From the IMG/VR virus record IMGVR_UViG_2939786809_000002, positions 3,141 to 67,140 of that record: DNA of 64,000 bases. The stretch is one strand, 5' to 3'. Under the pieces are notes generated by a model. That model saw only the letters and a program-made list of their open reading frames with translations. It made no database searches and had not been told where the DNA came from. Positions 6,153 to 30,390 of this stretch are shown piece by piece. A program made the position numbers and the translations under genes. This DNA comes from a virus. Every line of letters starts with the position of its first letter. Within the stretch, counting starts at the first letter, position 1.

Positions 6153-6215
6153 CCCGCACACAACAGGCCGCCCCCGCGGGCAATGCGGGGGCGGCCCACC
6201 GGAAGGAAACCACAG

Positions 6216-6788
6216 ATGACCACCGAACAGGCCGAGCCCGAGACCACGTCCACCACTCTCCAGGACATGCGGGACGTCAACACCCTGCTCCGCCGCCGCA
6301 ACAGCGCCATGCAGGAACTGATCGCCACCCACATCGCGAAGGCGCTCGACAGTCGCAAGAAGGAGCGATGGGACGCTGCCATCGAACTCGTCGAGGCCCT
6401 CAACGACGCCGACGTCAGCGTCTACCCGCTCGTCGACAAGTGGCTCGCCGACAACGGCTGGGACCCGAGGGCCGCATACAAGCCTCTGGCCGGCAGTGGC
6501 GGATGGATTGGGTCGATGGCTAACGCCGACGACCCGTACACGGCGGCGGAGAAGGCTTTCGCCCGTGAACCGTGGGGCCCCGGCGTCACCCGAGACCAGG
6601 CCATGGCCAACGTCGTCACCCCTCACCTCGCCGAAGCGCTCCTCGACGGCAAGAGCGAGGAAGTCCGCGCCTGGGCCCGAGGCCTCGCCCACGAGCTGAA
6701 GCGCGAGCGCATCGACCTGCTCGACGACATCGGCCGCCACATGCAGCGCATGGCCCTTGGCGAACCCAGCAGCGAGATCCCGTCCTAG
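6216..6788 (+). CDS. hypothetical phage protein
   Basis: RBS gaagga after a hairpin; MTTEQAEPE... Confidence 0.7.
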   Translation: MTTEQAEPETTSTTLQDMRDVNTLLRRRNSAMQELIATHIAKALDSRKKERWDAAIELVEALNDADVSVYPLVDKWLADNGWDPRAAYKPLAGSGGWIGSMANADDPYTAAEKAFAREPWGPGVTRDQAMANVVTPHLAEALLDGKSEEVRAWARGLAHELKRERIDLLDDIGRHMQRMALGEPSSEIPS

Positions 6789-8019: not shown

Positions 8020-8807
8020 CCACCGACCAAGCACTTCGCGAAGCCACCTGCCGATGGGCGCGACGCCGCAACCGGCTCATCGCATACGGCCAGTGGCAGC
8101 CGTTCGTCGACGCCGAACCCGCCCGCCAGCACGTCCTCACCATCCGCGCCAACACGGGCATGTCGCTCGCGAATCTCGCCGCGGTCACCGGGGTCGGCAT
8201 CGGAACCCTTCAGCACCTGATCTACGGCTGCACTGGCTACCCGCCCGCCAGGCAGATTCGCCCCGAGAGCTCCACGGCCCTCCTCGACTACTGGCCCACC
8301 CTCGACGACTACATCAACGGTGCCGTAGTCGACGCAACCGGAACCCGGCGCCGCATGCAGGCTCTGGCGACCATGGGCTGGGTCTCGGCCGCCGTGCAGA
8401 AACGAATCGACTTCATCAGCGTCAGAGCCGTCTCCAACCTCAAAGGCAGAGACCTGGTGACAGCGCGCGTCGCCCGAGCCGTCAGGGACTTCTACCAGAC
8501 AGTCTGCGGCAGTCCGGCAGAAGCGCACGGCGTCGCGCCGGCCGTAGCCAAGCAGGCCAGGAGTCACGCCCGGAAGAACCAGTGGGCCGGGCCAAGCACC
8601 TGGGACGACGACACCATCGACGACCCGCAGGCCACCCCTGAGTGGACGGGGCACTGCGGCACGATGCGCGGCTGGAAAGCCCACCGGGAGCAGGACATCC
8701 CGATGTGCGCAGCCTGCCAAGCCGCCTGCGACCGGAAGCAGGAGCGGGAGCAGGCCAGGGCCCTGTGCGGGGCGGCTTCCTCCCTCGATGGGCAGGTGGC
8801 GGCATGA
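8016..8807 (+). CDS. HTH DNA-binding protein with C-terminal Cys/His motif
   Basis: GMSLANLAAVTGVGIGTLQHLIYG HTH; C-terminal HCGT..GWKAH...CAAC. Confidence 0.7.
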   Translation: MTTDQALREATCRWARRRNRLIAYGQWQPFVDAEPARQHVLTIRANTGMSLANLAAVTGVGIGTLQHLIYGCTGYPPARQIRPESSTALLDYWPTLDDYINGAVVDATGTRRRMQALATMGWVSAAVQKRIDFISVRAVSNLKGRDLVTARVARAVRDFYQTVCGSPAEAHGVAPAVAKQARSHARKNQWAGPSTWDDDTIDDPQATPEWTGHCGTMRGWKAHREQDIPMCAACQAACDRKQEREQARALCGAASSLDGQVAA

Positions 8808-11244: not shown

Positions 11245-12162
11245 GTGGGTATTCGCCTGTTCGTCGAGGTGCTGGAACACGCACCCGACTCCTTGACGTG
11301 GCGTGAGCGGTACGTCCTTTCCGTGCTGGCGGAGAACGCCAACGACGGCACCCGCGAGTGCTGGCCCGGCATCGAGGACGACCCGGTGATCGCCCGCCGT
11401 ATGCGTATCCCGGGCCGCTCCAGCCGCTACGAGGTGCTGCGCGCACTGCGGGAGAAGAAGGCCCTGGAGACCGTCTCCGCCGGCCGCCGCGGGCACCGAG
11501 CCGTCTACCGCATCCCCACTCTTGGCCCCGCTTTGGGTCCGGGAACTACGGACCCTAACGTCTCCACAGGGTCCGGAAACTCCGGACACAGCGTCCAGGA
11601 ACCCCGGACCCTAACCGCAGAAAAGGGTCCGGAAACCACGGACCCTAACTCTGAGAAAGGGTCCGGGAACGACGTAGTTAGGGTCCGGGAACGACCGCTA
11701 CAGGGTCCGGAAACCACGGACCCCTTCCCCTCAGTCCCCTCAGTCCCCTCAGCTAGCAAGCAAGAGGGCCCGGTCGAAACGTTCGGCATCCCGGAAGCTG
11801 CCCGCCCCCTCGTAGACGGTGTGACCGCAGCCGGAGTAACTGTCCGCTGGCCCTTCCGCGGCAACAGCTGGTTCCCAGTTCTCGCCATGATCAGCAAATC
11901 CGGCGTGAACGCCATGGTCGAACACGCGATCACCGCCGCCAGCCGAACGCGCGTCGAGTCAGCGAACTACTTCCTCAAGGGCTGGGGCGAACTACCGCCC
12001 CTCCCGCCCCCAGGCGCCCAACGGCCCGCGCTCCGCTCCGTGCCCGCCACCCGCTCCACCACCGACGAACGCGTCGCCCAGGGCCAAGCCCTTGCCGCGA
12101 AGTTCCGCGAAGAAGAACGCCGAGCCCTCGAAGCCGGCCACCACCCCCAGGAGACCGCGTGA
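11245..12162 (+). CDS. phage replication initiator (N-terminal HTH, lambda O-like layout)
   Basis: N-terminal HTH (RERYVLSVLAENAND...CWPG), central low-complexity iteron region, followed by loader and helicase genes. Confidence 0.75.
   Translation: MGIRLFVEVLEHAPDSLTWRERYVLSVLAENANDGTRECWPGIEDDPVIARRMRIPGRSSRYEVLRALREKKALETVSAGRRGHRAVYRIPTLGPALGPGTTDPNVSTGSGNSGHSVQEPRTLTAEKGPETTDPNSEKGSGNDVVRVRERPLQGPETTDPFPSVPSVPSASKQEGPVETFGIPEAARPLVDGVTAAGVTVRWPFRGNSWFPVLAMISKSGVNAMVEHAITAASRTRVESANYFLKGWGELPPLPPPGAQRPALRSVPATRSTTDERVAQGQALAAKFREEERRALEAGHHPQETA
11535..11752. repeat. iteron array, probable replication origin
   Basis: GGGTCCG-N7-CGGACCC at 11535, 11625, 11703; variants at 11569, 11591; half-sites at 11659, 11681; then a CCCCTCAG triplet. 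Confidence 0.75.
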
Positions 12163-12401: not shown

Positions 12402-13742
12402 GTGATCGCCGACCAGTACGCGCCCGAAGACACCAACGTCCTCGAAGGGACCGTCTTCGAGCGCACCCCGCCCAACGACATCGCCGCCGAGATGTGCGTC
12501 CTCGGCTCCTGCATCCTGTCGCCGATCGCCTGCCGCCTGGTCCTCGACATCCTCGACCCCGCAGCGTTCTACCGGCCGGCGCACACCGTGATCCTCCTCG
12601 GCATCGCCGAAATGCACGCCGCCAAGCAGCCCATCGACCCGGTCACCCTCAGCAAGCACCTCGCCGACCGCGGCGACCTCGACCGGGTCGGTGGCTGGCA
12701 GTACCTCACCGAACTCGTCAAGGCCGTCCCCACCGCGGCGAACGCCGACTACTACGCCGACATCGTCCAAGACCGCCACCTGCGTCGCGCCCTCATCGGC
12801 ATCGGTACCGCCCTCGTTCAGATGGGCTACGCCGCAGACGACGCCACCGCCGAGCTTGTTGAGCGGGCCGTCACTCTCACCCGCGAGCTCCGCGACCAGG
12901 GCATGGCCACCGAAGACCTTCCCACCGAAGACATCCTCGACTTTGTCCAGCACGAGGACACCCACGACTGGATCGTCCCCGGTCTCCTGGAGCGCCAGGA
13001 CCGGCTGATCCTCACCGCCTCCGAGGGCGGCGGGAAGTCCACCCTGCTCCGGCAGCTGTCCGTCACCCTCGCCGCAGGCATCCACCCCTTCCGTACCTGG
13101 GAAACCATCAAGCCGATCAAGGTGCTCACCCTCGACTGTGAGAACGGGGCACCCGCCTCCCGCCGCAAGTTCCGGCCCCTCCTCGACTCCGCCGCGGCTC
13201 TGGAACTCCCCGTACAGCGAGGCCAGTTCCACATCGAATGCAAGCCCGAAGGGCTCGACCTCACCCGCCCCCAGGACCGGGCGTGGATGATGCGCCGCGT
13301 AGAAAAGCTCAACCCCGACCTGCTGATCATCGGCCCGATCTACCGGCTCCACGCGGGCGACCCCAACAGCGAAGAACTCGCACGCAAGGTCAGCGTCGTC
13401 ATCGACGAAGCCCGCGGCACCGCCGGCTGCGCCGTCCTCATGGAAGCCCACGCCCCCCACCACAACGGCATGGGCCAGCACCGCAACCTCCGCCCCCTCG
13501 GCTCCTCGCTGTGGATGCGGTGGCCCGAGTTCGGCTTCGGCCTTCGCCCCGTCGAGGACGAGAAGTCCGCGGCCAACGCCGAAGGTGCCCGCGGCCGGCG
13601 CGTCGTCCCCTGGCGCGGTATGCGGGACGAGCGGGACTGGCCCCAGTTCATCAAGCAGGGCGAGAAGTGGCCCTGGACCTCGTACACCCCCATCGACGCC
13701 GACCAGTACAGCGGCTTCTCCCCGACAGGAGCGATCTGGTGA
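12402..13742 (+). CDS. DnaB-like replicative helicase (DnaB N-domain plus RecA-type ATPase)
   Basis: PPNDIAAEMCVLGS...FYRPAH...PIDPVT; Walker A ASEGGGKST; MRWPEFGFGL. Confidence 0.85.
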   Translation: MIADQYAPEDTNVLEGTVFERTPPNDIAAEMCVLGSCILSPIACRLVLDILDPAAFYRPAHTVILLGIAEMHAAKQPIDPVTLSKHLADRGDLDRVGGWQYLTELVKAVPTAANADYYADIVQDRHLRRALIGIGTALVQMGYAADDATAELVERAVTLTRELRDQGMATEDLPTEDILDFVQHEDTHDWIVPGLLERQDRLILTASEGGGKSTLLRQLSVTLAAGIHPFRTWETIKPIKVLTLDCENGAPASRRKFRPLLDSAAALELPVQRGQFHIECKPEGLDLTRPQDRAWMMRRVEKLNPDLLIIGPIYRLHAGDPNSEELARKVSVVIDEARGTAGCAVLMEAHAPHHNGMGQHRNLRPLGSSLWMRWPEFGFGLRPVEDEKSAANAEGARGRRVVPWRGMRDERDWPQFIKQGEKWPWTSYTPIDADQYSGFSPTGAIW

Positions 13743-22044: not shown

Positions 22045-22058
22045 CTCCTTCGAAGGAG
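22045..22058. promoter_or_regulatory. putative Kor/GntR operator O1
   Basis: Perfect 14-bp palindrome CTCCTTCGAAGGAG between the divergent GIY-YIG-GntR and GntR genes. Confidence 0.75.
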
Positions 22059-25650: not shown

Positions 25651-27000
25651 ATGAGTGCCGACTACCGTTCCTGGGAGGAGCGTGAGGCCACCGCCAAGAA
25701 GACCCGCGCCGAGGCAGAACGTATCGCCGCCGAGGCCGAAGCCGCCCGTACCGCCAGCGCCCAGGCTGCCGAAGCCGGCGCGGCGAGGACCGCCACCGAT
25801 CTTCTCGCCGAGCAGGTCAAGCAGGCCGGGCTGAAGAAGAGGCTCGACGCCGTCGCCGAAGCCGCCAAGGACGAGAAGGCGGAGCACAAGGCCCGGCGCC
25901 GCGAGGCGAGCGCCGACAACGGCACCGCTTTCAAGCGCATCGTCAACGTCGCCGTCGTCCTCGGCCTCCTCGCCGCACTCCCCGCCCAGCTGTCGTACTT
26001 CCTCACCCTCCACAAGGAAGGCGAGAAGAACCCTGGTACCGCGTGGCTCCTCGGGCCGATCCCGTTCTTCCTGGAGCTCCTCGCCTGGGTCGGTGTCCTC
26101 GGTACCCGATGGGCACACCGCAAGGGTCTGCCCCGGTGGCCGTTCTGGATCCTGACCGCGTCGCTGGCCTCGGTCGCCGGATACATCAACCTCGCCCACG
26201 GCACCGACGAGTACGGGATCGTCGCCGGCGTCGCCCTGGCCGCCACGTCGGTGATCGGCCCGGTCCTTGCGGAGGTCCGCGACTTCCTCGAAGGGCGGGC
26301 CGCCGCCGACACCCGAAGCCTGGAGCAGCGGGCTGCCGCGAAGGCCGCAGCGAAGAAGCAGGCCCGAGAGCAGCGGGCGCTCGCGAAGGTACACGCCACC
26401 GAGGACAGGCGGCGCAAGGAACTGTTCAAGCACGAGTTCGCCGAGTACCAGCGGATCATCGTCGCGCACCCCACCGGCGCCATCAGCCGCGAGGCCGCGT
26501 GGCAGCAGGCGTGGGACAACATCCACCTCCTCCCGCTCGCCACAACCGCAGACACGCTCGCCGGCCGCGAGGAAGCCCGCGCCGCGATCAACGCGGTCCT
26601 GTCGAACGCCGACCGCACCCCCGAGAGCGAAGCAGTCGACCGGCTCCTCGCCGAAATCTTCCGCCCCGACGGCGGCGACAGCGGACCTTCCCAGAAGCCC
26701 ACAGAGGGCGGGCCCAAGGGTGGTGGGGGGGGAGGGTCACGGGCCCGCCGACCGGCCGACCCGAAGAAGCCTGGAGCCCTTGGGGGGATTGGCAACCGGC
26801 CCTCTGGTCGCGCCCCCCGAACCGATGCTGTAGAGCCCCTCCGAAGTGAGGACATCGAAGCGGCGAAGAAGCTTCGCGACGCCGTGCCCGCCGACCAGTT
26901 CTCCACTCCCGCCGTTGCCAAGCTCCTCGGCCGCAGCAAGGTCTACGCCCGCCGAGTCCGCGACGCCGTACAGCCCGACGCCACCCAGGAGCAGAAGTGA
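25651..27000 (+). CDS. SpdB2-like integral membrane spread protein
   Basis: N-terminal coiled coil, about 4 hydrophobic helices, Gly/Pro linker, basic HTH-like C-terminus; directly upstream of and coupled to traB. Confidence 0.7.
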   Translation: MSADYRSWEEREATAKKTRAEAERIAAEAEAARTASAQAAEAGAARTATDLLAEQVKQAGLKKRLDAVAEAAKDEKAEHKARRREASADNGTAFKRIVNVAVVLGLLAALPAQLSYFLTLHKEGEKNPGTAWLLGPIPFFLELLAWVGVLGTRWAHRKGLPRWPFWILTASLASVAGYINLAHGTDEYGIVAGVALAATSVIGPVLAEVRDFLEGRAAADTRSLEQRAAAKAAAKKQAREQRALAKVHATEDRRRKELFKHEFAEYQRIIVAHPTGAISREAAWQQAWDNIHLLPLATTADTLAGREEARAAINAVLSNADRTPESEAVDRLLAEIFRPDGGDSGPSQKPTEGGPKGGGGGGSRARRPADPKKPGALGGIGNRPSGRAPRTDAVEPLRSEDIEAAKKLRDAVPADQFSTPAVAKLLGRSKVYARRVRDAVQPDATQEQK

Positions 27001-29222
27001 GCATCGAGACCACCCCCGCCAGCACACCGGATCCCGAGTGGGACAAGCTCGTCTCCGGCTTCTCCGCCGACCCGGCCGAGAAGTCCGCCGGCCCCGTCCT
27101 CCAGAAGACGACCGACGTCCCCGTCAACCGCCCGGACCTCCTCGGCGACATGCCCCTCACGCCGCAGTGGGCGCGGACGTCGACGGGGTGGAGGGCGCGC
27201 GCCGCCGTCGGCAAGGTGAACTCCGTCCGGGCGTTCCGCCGGTGGGTGCGCCGGCAGAACACCGAGCACGGGCACACCGCCCAGGTCTTCCGCGGGATGC
27301 GGCGCACGTTCCTGTGGGTGCAGGGCACCGAAGGCGTCCAGGTCGCCACCGCCCGCCGTGAAGTCCAGCAGGCCCAGGCCGACTACAAGACGGCGAAGTG
27401 GCACCACGGCAAGCGGCTCATCCCCGACAAGGAGAAGGGCAGGCGGCGGACCGAGATGGAGAAGGCGTTCGGTGGATCCGTCACCGCCATGGGCAGGTAC
27501 AAGTCTGCCCAGCGGGACGCCCGGACACGGCGTGCGGTCCGCGGCACGCTCGCCGCCGCGGCCGTCGCAGTGCCGGAGGGCGCCGGGATCTACCTGATCG
27601 GCGGCACCGGCGGTGTCATCGCGACTGGGTCCGCCCTCCTCGCGTTTGCCCTGATCGGCCGGCGCACCACGGGTGGCGAGGTGTACACCGATCGGGACGC
27701 GAAGATCGGTGACGGCGACCGGATGACCGACGACATGATCGACCGGGCGTTCCGCGACGCCGGAATCATCCGCGGCGACCAGGCCGTCGTGTTCCGCTCC
27801 CCGGTCATCCAGGACGGGCGGGCCTGGCTCGCCCACCTGGAGATCACCGGCGGTGTCGAAGTCGCCGACGTCCAGAAGAAGACCGGGCCCCTCGCCTCCG
27901 CCCTCGGCATCCCGAAGCACCAGATGGACATCCGCCACGAAGGACGCGAAGACCACCTCAGCCTCTGGGTATCCATGACCGACCCGTTCGGCCGGACCAT
28001 CACCAACCCGCTCATCGGCACTACCGACAAGGTCAACGCCTGGCGCGACGGGCTCCCGCTCGGCTTCGACAAGCGCGGCAGCATCGTCCTCGCCACCATC
28101 TCCGACTACTCGCTGCTCGTCGGCGGCACCACCCGCTCCGGCAAGGGCATGGCCGTCGCGAACATCCTCGTCGGCGCCATGCTCGACCCCCGCATCCGTG
28201 TCCGCCTCTTCGACGGCAAAGGCACCGGCGAGTACGTCGGTATCGCCCCCGCCCTCGACACGTTCGTCCGCCGCAACCCCGAACGGCTCCGCGACTTCCT
28301 CAAAGTCCTTGTCGCCGAACTGGAACGGCGGACCGAGATCCTCGTCGACCTCGGCGTATCGAAAGCCACCGAGGAGCTCCTGGAGCAGCTCGGCGGCATC
28401 GAGCTCCTCATCGTCGACGAGCTCGCCACCTACACCGTCAAGGGCGGTCTCAACGGCCAGTACGCCGAAGAGATCGTCGAACTCCTCGCCCAGACCGCCG
28501 CGGTCGGCGCCGCAGTCGGGATCATCCTCGTCCTCGCCACCCAGCACCCCAAGGTCGACGTCATCCCGTCCCGGCTCCGCGGCAACTGCAACGGCCGGTG
28601 GTCGATGCGCGTCGAGTCCGCGACCGCGTCGAACACCATCCTCGGGGACGGCGTCGCCGGGGACGGATACGACGCCAGCGACATCAAGAACAGCAAGTCG
28701 ACCCGAGGGCGCGGGTGGCTCACCACCCCCGACACCGGGTTCATCGAAGCCCGCTCCCTGTTCGTCGACGTCGAAGGCGGCGACCTCCGTAAGGCCGCCA
28801 AGGCGGGCATGGCACTTCGTAAGGCCATAGGCCGCCTGCCCTTGCACTGCCCGGACCCGATCGAAGACCAGCTCAAGGCCGACACCGGCATCAGCATGGT
28901 CGCCGGCGGTCCCACCGGAAAGGGCACCCTGGTCCAGGCCGAGGCGGAGCCGACGATCCTCGACCACATCATCAAGGCCGTCACCGCCACCGGCCGCAGC
29001 GAAGCGACCCGCGGCGAGGTCTTCGCCTACATGGCCTCGGTCGACGAGCGGTACGAGCGGGGCGACTCGGAAAGCGACGCCCAGTACGGGTCCCGTGCCG
29101 GGAAGCTCCTGGCCGCCGACTTGGAGGCCGACGACTTCGAGTTGAAGGCCGTGAAGGTGTCGACCGCGGACGGCAGGGAGGGACGCGGGTTCAGGCTCGC
29201 CGACCTCCATGCCGCCCTATAG
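26997..29222 (+). CDS. traB: TraB/TraSA-type FtsK/SpoIIIE conjugal DNA translocase
   Basis: Two TM segments, Walker A GGTTRSGKG, Walker B LLIVDE, ATQHP, C-terminal winged-helix-like region. Confidence 0.9.
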   Translation: MSIETTPASTPDPEWDKLVSGFSADPAEKSAGPVLQKTTDVPVNRPDLLGDMPLTPQWARTSTGWRARAAVGKVNSVRAFRRWVRRQNTEHGHTAQVFRGMRRTFLWVQGTEGVQVATARREVQQAQADYKTAKWHHGKRLIPDKEKGRRRTEMEKAFGGSVTAMGRYKSAQRDARTRRAVRGTLAAAAVAVPEGAGIYLIGGTGGVIATGSALLAFALIGRRTTGGEVYTDRDAKIGDGDRMTDDMIDRAFRDAGIIRGDQAVVFRSPVIQDGRAWLAHLEITGGVEVADVQKKTGPLASALGIPKHQMDIRHEGREDHLSLWVSMTDPFGRTITNPLIGTTDKVNAWRDGLPLGFDKRGSIVLATISDYSLLVGGTTRSGKGMAVANILVGAMLDPRIRVRLFDGKGTGEYVGIAPALDTFVRRNPERLRDFLKVLVAELERRTEILVDLGVSKATEELLEQLGGIELLIVDELATYTVKGGLNGQYAEEIVELLAQTAAVGAAVGIILVLATQHPKVDVIPSRLRGNCNGRWSMRVESATASNTILGDGVAGDGYDASDIKNSKSTRGRGWLTTPDTGFIEARSLFVDVEGGDLRKAAKAGMALRKAIGRLPLHCPDPIEDQLKADTGISMVAGGPTGKGTLVQAEAEPTILDHIIKAVTATGRSEATRGEVFAYMASVDERYERGDSESDAQYGSRAGKLLAADLEADDFELKAVKVSTADGREGRGFRLADLHAAL

Positions 29223-29232
29223 ATCACTTTTG

Positions 29233-29418
29233 CACCCTGCCCCGACCCTGCCCGGACCCGCATCACCGCAGGTCAGCAGGTCGGGCTCCCTGCCCCGACC
29301 CTGCCCCGCGCGGGCAGGGTCACCCCACCCCGGAACGACACCCAGCCCACCTGGGCAGGGTGCGGGCAGGGTCGCCACCTGCGGAAACGCCAGCGCCGGA
29401 CACGGTCCAGGCAGGGTC
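29233..29418. repeat. clt-like locus with TraB recognition repeats
   Basis: (G/C)(A/T)CCCTGCCC at 29233, 29244, 29286, 29297; inverted copies at 29312, 29353, 29364, 29409; paired copies have an 11-bp period. Confidence 0.78.
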
Positions 29419-29451
29419 CGGCACCCCCTCACCGCCACCTAGGAGTCCCGC

Positions 29452-29655
29452 ATGCCGATCACGTTCCGCAAGAGCTTCCGGATCTTCCCCGGGGTCCGGC
29501 TCAACATCAACCGAATGTCCTGGTCGATCACCCTCGGAGCCGGCCGCGGCCCCCGGCACACCATCAGCAGCACCGGCCAGCGCACCACATCGCTCGACCT
29601 ACCCGGCCCCCTCGGCTGGCGCAGGACCCGAACCCGCCGCAACCGCAACCGCTAG
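29452..29655 (+). CDS. DUF4236-family protein
   Basis: ITFRKSFRIFPGVRLNIN...; RBS aggag. Confidence 0.8.
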   Translation: MPITFRKSFRIFPGVRLNINRMSWSITLGAGRGPRHTISSTGQRTTSLDLPGPLGWRRTRTRRNRNR

Positions 29656-29664
29656 GAGGCCGCC

Positions 29665-29850
29665 ATGGAGCGCTACCACTCCCTCTACTTCGTGTCGATC
29701 ATCGGCCCCGCCGTTCTCGGCTTGATCGCCCTCGCTCTCATCGCGCTGCCTGGCGATCCGAGCACCGCCCGCATGCTCATCGGGCTTGCCGTCTATCTCG
29801 CTGTCGTCGTCGGCGGCGGGGTCGTCATGACTCGACGGCTCGACCGGTAA
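29665..29850 (+). CDS. two-TM membrane protein (Spd-like)
   Basis: RBS aggagg; two hydrophobic helices. Confidence 0.7.
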   Translation: MERYHSLYFVSIIGPAVLGLIALALIALPGDPSTARMLIGLAVYLAVVVGGGVVMTRRLDR

Positions 29851-29883: not shown

Positions 29884-30390
29884 ATGCAGCTGCCCGAGCA
29901 GCCCGTCGCCGGGCAGCCCACCGACAACCCCCTGGCGCAAGCCGTCAATGAAGCCATCACCAAAGAGCTCGCGAAGACCTACCACCGGGACACCGCCCCG
30001 CTGCCCGTCACCGGATCGGCCCCGCCCGTCGCGCAGCCTGGCCGGGCAGCCATGAGCCAGCGGGCCGTCGACCGCAACACGACCATCCTCACCAGCAGCA
30101 TCCTCACCGCCGTCGCCGGAGGGGCCGTCAGCCTCGTCCTCTGGACTTCGGGCCACGCCAACGAGACGGTCATCGCCTGGATCTGCGGCGGGATCGTTGG
30201 AGTGCCCGTCGTCCTCACGCTGCCCGTGCTGGCCCTGAAGGGACTGATGAAGAGCGTCAAGGAGGCCGCTGAGGCAGCGCCGGCGCCGGTCACCAACCAC
30301 TTCCACGGCCCCGTCCACCACAACAGGCGCACCGTCACCAGCACCACCCGCGGCGTCATCGCCAACACTCGGAACCAGCAAGCCCACTGA
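29884..30390 (+). CDS. SpdD-like membrane protein
   Basis: Pro-rich N-terminus, two TM helices, C-terminal PVTNHFHGPVHH. Confidence 0.6.
   Translation: MQLPEQPVAGQPTDNPLAQAVNEAITKELAKTYHRDTAPLPVTGSAPPVAQPGRAAMSQRAVDRNTTILTSSILTAVAGGAVSLVLWTSGHANETVIAWICGGIVGVPVVLTLPVLALKGLMKSVKEAAEAAPAPVTNHFHGPVHHNRRTVTSTTRGVIANTRNQQAH

Follow-up and report, generated by a model that had tools for sequence, protein, structure and literature searches.

A probable clt-type docking site with its own repeat word lies directly downstream of traB in a tailed prophage of Streptomyces

Introduction

In three publications (PMC4447253, PMC4170104, PMC5133688), binding by the DNA translocase TraB is placed at the clt locus of plasmid pSVH1 and its 8-bp repeats. 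A compact array of short repeats was found directly 3' of a traB gene in a provirus, and raises the question of whether this array is the docking site of the adjacent TraB or serves instead as an operator, an RNA structure, a replication or partition site, or a place at which the host FtsK is loaded. The sequence analyzed (64,000 nucleotides, here termed the window) comes from a Streptomyces prophage, recorded in IMG/VR as a provirus of 77.9 kb. The window was compared to 24 further Streptomyces traB loci (31-90% identity) and three plasmids, giving a survey of 28 loci in which individual loci are referred to by L numbers.

Results

Anatomy of the repeat array

A preliminary description of this DNA had listed four direct and then four inverted repeat copies between positions 29233 and 29418, with paired copies spaced 11 bp apart and with CCGCAGGT (29266) mirrored by ACCTGCGG (29377). 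By reading of the sequence, all eight copies and the 11-bp spacing were confirmed, and the mirrored elements proved to be a perfect 8-bp inverted repeat. The copies, the pairs they form and the elements between them are as follows.

29233, + strand: direct copy CACCCTGCCC
29244 and 29297, + strand: direct copy GACCCTGCCC
29286, + strand: direct copy CTCCCTGCCC
29312 and 29364, - strand: inverted copy GGGCAGGGTC
29353, - strand: inverted copy GGGCAGGGTG
29409, - strand: inverted copy AGGCAGGGTC
29398-29407, - strand: ninth copy, degenerate and inverted, GGACACGGTC (repeat family D1; kept in relatives)
29233-29253, + strand: direct pair P1, CACCCTGCCC and GACCCTGCCC, starts 11 bp apart; nearly invariant in L006-L008
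29286-29306, + strand: direct pair P2, CTCCCTGCCC and GACCCTGCCC, 11 bp apart; 53 bp from P1
29297-29321, no strand assigned: central tight palindrome, GACCCTGCCC, 5-nt spacer and GGGCAGGGTC; 10-nt arms, 100% complementary
29353-29373, - strand: inverted pair P2', GGGCAGGGTG and GGGCAGGGTC, 11 bp apart
29398-29418, - strand: inverted pair P1', degenerate GGACACGGTC and AGGCAGGGTC, 11 bp apart
29264-29275, + strand: L element CACCGCAGGTCA, between the two direct pairs; invariant in the four close relatives
29375-29386, + strand: R element CCACCTGCGGAA, inverted partner of the L element

The array spans 186 bp with a consensus unit of (G/C)ACCCTGCC(C/T), and is intergenic and non-coding. It starts 10 nt beyond the traB stop codon (TAG, 29220-29222) and ends 34 nt ahead of the next start codon. 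Its architecture is that of two mirror modules, each composed of a pair, a GCAGGTCA element and a pair. The left module (+ strand) consists of P1 (29233, 29244), the L element and P2 (29286, 29297), and the right module, read on the - strand, of a pair (29409, 29398), the R element and a further pair (29364, 29353). An extra inverted copy at 29312 abuts P2 and thereby generates the tight palindrome, at which the polarity of the repeats switches. The pairs are separated by 53, 52 and 45 bp; together with the 11-bp spacing within pairs, these distances would place most copies on one face of the helix.

The clustering of the repeats is not due to chance. The 64-kb window has 15 exact CCCTGCCC sites, and seven of them are confined to 137 bp (29235-29371), a cluster with a Poisson probability of about 1e-16 at the background rate of the window. 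When the sequence was shuffled by a Markov procedure, the top 8-mer count per 190 bp was usually 3-4 and once 6 in 40 shuffles, compared to the 7 observed.

A symmetry of this kind could act mainly in RNA, as a terminator or as a stem-loop that stabilizes the traB message at its 3' end. The arms of the central palindrome form a 10-bp GC stem, and for 29223-29430 as a single strand a folding energy of -59 kcal/mol was obtained (z = -4.2), which is stronger than all 200 shuffles; this strong folding is simply what the dyad symmetry entails. No T tract follows the stem, a terminator scan of 28900-29800 returned no terminator-like sites, and an Rfam search of the same interval was without match. 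A hairpin also leaves the tandem 11-bp pairs unexplained, the changes examined in relatives (e.g., TACCCTGTCC in L008) are unmatched in the partner arm, and L010 and L017 keep the array in the absence of a tight central hairpin. We therefore regard a primary role in RNA as very improbable; an RNA hairpin may accompany a clt function as a secondary role or be its side effect.

The adjacent gene encodes a TraB of the pSVH1 family

The gene that ends immediately upstream of the array is the following.

26997-29222, + strand: traB, encoding a 741-aa FtsK/SpoIIIE-type dsDNA translocase (Pfam PF01580, E 2.8e-9)

Its product matched phrog_1358 (E 9e-86) and the FtsK motor chains of the PDB (E 7e-10), and has Walker A (GTTRSGKG, residue 377) and Walker B (LLIVDE, residue 470) motifs. 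By BLASTP it was 32% identical to the TraB of pSVH1 over 614 aa (E 5e-61), with residues 34-628 aligned to residues 78-679 of the plasmid protein. This alignment takes in the TraB-specific N-terminal region, so the homology extends beyond the motor; it includes a moderately hydrophobic segment (residues 183-221, Kyte-Doolittle 1.4-1.6), a candidate membrane anchor ahead of the motor, that is aligned with the equivalent segment of pSVH1 TraB. Judged by this homology, the gene is a true traB of the pSVH1 family.

The C-terminal tail was modeled separately. For the C-terminal 105 aa, an AF2 prediction built with 23 homologues reached a pLDDT of 88 with the topology helix-strand-helix-helix-hairpin (H-b-H-H-b-b). 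Its top Foldseek and VIA matches were all winged-helix DNA binders (forkhead, ORC/Cdc6, H5 and PafBC), at moderate scores (Foldseek E of about 0.015; VIA Z up to 5.4), and FtsK gamma was not among these leading structural matches. At the sequence level, a Pfam search of the tail alone gave no family and a profile search against PDB sequences gave only chance-level matches (EF-hand proteins, E above 0.2), so that neither search linked the tail to FtsK gamma. On the basis of the model, residues ~655-741 are confidently predicted to form a winged helix-turn-helix DNA-recognition domain.

Comparison with pSVH1 and other clt loci

The region 3' of traB in pSVH1 (NC_007431.1, 8143-8370) was read directly for comparison. 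Right after the traB stop codon, GACCCGGC is followed by GACCCGGA at a distance of 11 bp, and three more + strand copies come next, such that GACCCGGA occurs on the + strand at 8158, 8180, 8212 and 8233. A tight palindrome (GACCCGGACG cccg CGTCCGGGTC) is present, GACCCGGA appears on the - strand at 8249, and past the palindrome come degenerate inverted copies, TGACCTGCG and a last inverted pair 11 bp apart. The locus of the window and that of pSVH1 thus are alike in their position directly 3' of traB, in a first pair with 11-bp spacing, in direct and then inverted copies around a tight central palindrome, in a (C/G)ACCTGC(G/A) element ahead of the last inverted pair, in a total length of ~190-230 bp and in the homology of their TraB proteins. 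The same layout was found in pSG5 and in plasmid CP075612.

The two loci differ in the word that is repeated, (G/C)ACCCTGCC(C/T) in the window and the TraB recognition sequence GACCCGGA in pSVH1, with only GACCC in common. They differ also in the TraB tail, which in the window is of a short winged-helix type to which the tail of pSVH1 TraB is not aligned by BLAST, and in the replicon, which is a ~78-kb tailed prophage compared to a 12.7-kb rolling-circle plasmid of Streptomyces venezuelae.

The clt loci of pIJ101, pJV1 and pWTY27 combine direct with inverted repeats, and that of pWTY27, which is 175 bp long, begins inside the end of traA and was footprinted by TraA (PMC3583192). By published description these loci resemble that of the window in being short, non-coding, located beside a tra gene and built of direct and inverted repeats, but their words differ from that of the window (TGACACC and CCCGCCC in pWTY27, CCGCACA(C/G)(C/G) in pJV1 and GC/AAAC in pIJ101; PMC3583192). 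Thus, the type of locus is already known, and what is new here is the repeat word.

Conservation of the repeats and delimitation of the word

Selection on the repeats was assessed by aligning the window with its close relatives L006-L008 (four loci). Columns were invariant at 90% of positions in the repeats and at 100% in the L and R elements, compared to 52% in the remaining intergenic DNA (Fisher P 4e-11). The first copy reads TACCCTGTCC in L008. This distribution of changes indicates that the repeats are under selection.

The preliminary description had proposed GACCCTGC as the word recognized by TraB. This octamer stands as one frame of the conserved unit, but conservation spans ACCCTGCC and, less strictly, the single base that flanks it at either end. 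As the conserved unit is therefore 10 bp (G/C before ACCCTGCC, C/T after), GACCCTGC is one possible frame among others, and sequence by itself cannot tell which 8 bp are contacted.

The word was also counted, as the preliminary description had suggested, in a host chromosome, using an 8-Mb draft Streptomyces genome in which a 90% relative of the element is present, with the reversed pattern as control. Pairs spaced 11 bp apart, with one mismatch allowed, occurred six times in this genome, four of them within the locus itself, and were absent from the control. The single 10-mer was not enriched in this related genome (75 copies compared to 56 for the control). Mobilization of the chromosome by way of clt-like sites is thus not indicated.

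Layout across the survey and co-variation of word and TraB tail

In nearly all of the 28 loci, a repeat array begins a few bases past the traB stop codon. Polarity was scored in each locus by the exact 7-mer that occurs there most often, a measure chosen since a repeat caller that allows one mismatch was noisy for near-palindromic words, and 23 loci were informative. The two orientations were fully segregated, one before the other, in 20 of these 23 loci, compared to 5.4 expected by random order. Among same-strand spacings, 11 bp was the most common (43 cases), followed by 21, 33, 42 and 54 bp, which approximate multiples of one helical turn. The preliminary description had contrasted the head-to-head symmetry with a purely direct array; the segregated orientations in these 20 loci and the layout of pSVH1 do not support a reading in which this symmetry sets the locus apart from known clt loci, and it is instead the norm of the family.

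The words themselves vary between loci, as listed below.

ACCCTGCC: window, L006, L007, L008 and L013
GGTGCGCA-like: L009
GTCGGACA: L010
CCGGACG: L011 and L014
CCCTGTG: L015
GGTCTGCC: L017
GACCCGGAC: L021 and L023
ACCTGGA: L026

L009 belongs to S. litmocidini, and its word (~6190-6350) reads GGTGCGCACC, a perfect palindrome, as a result of which the copies in this locus are without polarity.

The word was found to follow the TraB tail. The motors of L013 and L009 are nearly equally similar to that of the window TraB (88% and 87% identity, respectively), whereas their C-terminal 88 residues are 72% identical to the window in L013, which has the same word, and 48% identical in L009, which has a different one. 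The predicted third helix of the tail reads AQYGSRAGKLL in the four closest relatives of the window, all of which share its word, AQYGSRVGKLL in L013, which likewise has this word, and TAYATRAGTLV in L009, which does not. Flanking genes did not show this correspondence: the upstream protein of L008 is only 26% identical to that of the window while the word is the same, and the word is different in L015, in which the upstream protein is 62% identical, and in L011, in which the homologue of downstream orf29884 is 81% identical. The repeat word thus varies with the winged-helix tail of TraB, and not with the flanking genes, in a comparison that includes few independent word switches and in which common ancestry is a partial confounder. 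L013 and L009 are alike in the motor and differ in both tail and word, and so form a natural pair that is ready for specificity-swap work.

A second conserved element

The L and R elements were traced through the same survey. The L-type pattern, (C/T)GCAGGT(C/G), was present in 10 of the 28 loci, at +34 to +52 after the stop codon and with differing repeat words. The R-type pattern, (C/G)ACCTGC(G/A), was present in 22 of the 28, including pSVH1 (L032, ~3736) and pSG5, and was in every case located on the + strand, between +122 and +154 from the stop codon, with a density ~20-fold above that of flanking DNA; it was not found at L009 (~6190-6350). The element (GCAGGTCA or (C/G)ACCTGC(G/A)) is kept across TraB clades that have different repeat words, including L010-L031, and its conservation is not explained by recognition of the repeats by TraB. 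Identity with the sps palindrome of SpdA was considered and rejected, as sps (CGTCACGTGACG) is a different sequence (PMC4170104), and a literature search for an ACCTGC element together with clt found no mention of one. From this distribution, a second element of the L/R type appears to be a general feature of TraB-adjacent clt regions, that of pSVH1 included.

Genomic context of the array

The window encodes a portal, major head, major tail, tape measure, Dit, minor tail and tail fibre protein, an endolysin and a DnaB-like helicase (12402-13742), and the tyrosine integrase gene of the record is located outside the window. The traB module is thus embedded in the genome of a tailed prophage. Directly upstream, a 449-aa protein (25651-27000) is translationally coupled to traB; it had no Pfam or PHROG family and no BLAST similarity to pSVH1 SpdB2 (E 1.2), and is therefore not named SpdB2 here. 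In L008, in which traB is 90% identical, this protein is exchanged for an unrelated one. The first gene downstream is the following.

29452-29655, + strand: 67-aa DUF4236 protein (Pfam PF14020, E 1.2e-16)

This gene is absent directly after the same array in L007 and L008. The gene that follows the array encodes the DUF4236 protein in the window and L006 and a protein that begins with MQLPEQ in L007 and L008. In the window the MQLPEQ gene is located at 29884-30390, which is 466 bp further away, and the DUF4236 gene together with a 61-aa hydrophobic ORF (29665-29850) is inserted ahead of it, as in L006. The MQLPEQ gene was observed directly after the array in L011 and L014 as well as in L007 and L008.

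These arrangements bear on the possibility that the repeats are operators of a transcription factor for the small membrane and spread-like genes downstream of traB. Phased repeats with dyad symmetry are typical of operators, and the intergenic position of the array, 34 bp ahead of a start codon, would suit such a role. The same array precedes different genes, however (DUF4236 in the window and L006, MQLPEQ in L007 and L008), a promoter scan of 28900-29800 found no sigma-70-like promoter, and the word tracks the TraB tail and not the flanking genes. In addition, the palindrome CTCCTTCGAAGGAG beside the neighboring GntR gene, assigned by the preliminary description as the likely GntR operator, occurs only at 22045, 22992 and 23028 and is absent from the array. 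An operator function is thus considered improbable. Separately, the ribosome-binding region of the MQLPEQ gene in L007 (~6420-6445) and L008 (~6418-6443) contains CACTTCGAAGGAG, which equals half of the CTCCTTCGAAGGAG palindrome and may be a further operator of this type or a Shine-Dalgarno look-alike.

Arrays of phased 10- to 11-bp repeats are also typical of iterons and of plasmid centromeres, and the array after traB might on this ground help the element to replicate or segregate. Neither a rep nor a par gene was found next to it, though, and it accompanies traB across plasmids, integrated elements and prophages that differ in their other modules. Furthermore, a separate iteron-like array is present at 11530-11725, beside the DnaB-like helicase gene. 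We consider an iteron or centromere-like role of the traB-adjacent array to be highly unlikely.

The array at 11530-11725, upstream of the helicase gene, is likewise dense, with about eight units of GGGTCCGG(A/G)AAC...CGGACCCTAAC and with eight occurrences of AGGGTCCG within 190 bp. It is followed at 11727-11753 by CCCCTCAGT, repeated three times in tandem. It is possibly a replication origin with iterons or a partition site.

Relation of the repeat word to KOPS

On the opposite, G-rich strand, the window word reads GGGCAGGG and matches GGGNAGGG, the octamer that is known as KOPS (PMC3384302) and is read by FtsK in E. coli, V. cholerae and P. aeruginosa. The inverted copies at 29312-29319, 29353-29360 and 29364-29371 read GGGCAGGG, and this G-rich reading faces outward from the center on both arms. 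The window word resembles KOPS and the SpoIIIE SRS in being an 8-bp word for the winged-helix tail of an FtsK-family motor (predicted in the case of the window), and its polarity switches at a defined point, as does that of KOPS at dif. By contrast, KOPS are scattered and strand-skewed chromosome-wide, whereas the copies in the window are packed in 186 bp.

This identity, together with the outward orientation of the copies on both arms, would be compatible with an array that loads the host FtsK and not the TraB of the element, although the KOPS octamer of these three species may not be the Streptomyces word. Sister loci carry unrelated words that track their own TraB tails, and the 10-mer had no clear strand bias or enrichment in the related draft genome (31 forward and 44 reverse copies, control 56), in which the strands were mixed on most contigs and replichores were unassigned. 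Loading of host FtsK is accordingly extremely improbable. The match to KOPS is striking for a word next to the gene of an FtsK relative, and may be coincidence.

Discussion

Taken together, the position of the array, its layout, the selection on its repeats and their co-variation with the TraB tail support the assignment, made in the preliminary description, of this array to the clt type, with the adjacent TraB as its partner. On these comparative grounds, we conclude that 29233-29418 is probably the docking site of this TraB. The winged-helix tails of the TraB hexamer would bind the repeat copies and the ring would assemble around the duplex at the array. ATP hydrolysis would then pump the DNA of the element through a membrane pore into the neighboring hypha or compartment. 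The two mirror modules would let two motors load in opposite directions, so that each arm of a circular molecule would have its own.

A more extensive reading can be built on these features. SpoIIIE is thought to pump two chromosome arms at once. In a similar manner, each of the two modules (pair, GCAGGTCA, pair) might carry one TraB hexamer, with the two hexamers back to back, and both arms of the prophage, excised as a circle, would be pumped simultaneously. In this clade, the TraB tail would still read, or would read once more, the ancestral FtsK word GGGCAGGG. The GCAGGTCA/TGACCTGC element, which is conserved, would be a second signal, undescribed so far, that is independent of specificity. 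If so, the genome of a tailed phage would spread between hyphae without virions. As a combination of two-way loading, virion-free spread, an ancestral FtsK word and a specificity-independent second signal, this reading is speculative and, in our estimate, rather unlikely to hold as a whole.

Virion genes and a conjugal transfer locus in one Streptomyces replicon have a precedent in pZL12 (phage ZL12, GQ919031), a case cited in two reports (PMC4487206, PMC3583192), and the window record is alike in this respect. By megablast and blastn the two share only short matches (one of 180 bp with 91% identity and one of 83 bp with 77%), and pZL12 is an autonomous plasmid whereas the window record is a provirus with a tyrosine integrase. 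A tblastn search of 50,697 phage records with the window TraB gave no match. Thus, none of the isolated phages searched had a detectable relative of this TraB, and DNA searches gave only the short matches to pZL12.

The locus supplies a concrete candidate recognition word for the TraB clade of the window, and mirror layout and helical phasing emerge as general features of TraB-adjacent clt regions, including that of pSVH1. Given the location of the module within a tailed prophage, a functional clt would mean that the phage genome can also move as naked dsDNA, which would bear on the spread of Streptomyces prophages and phage-plasmids.
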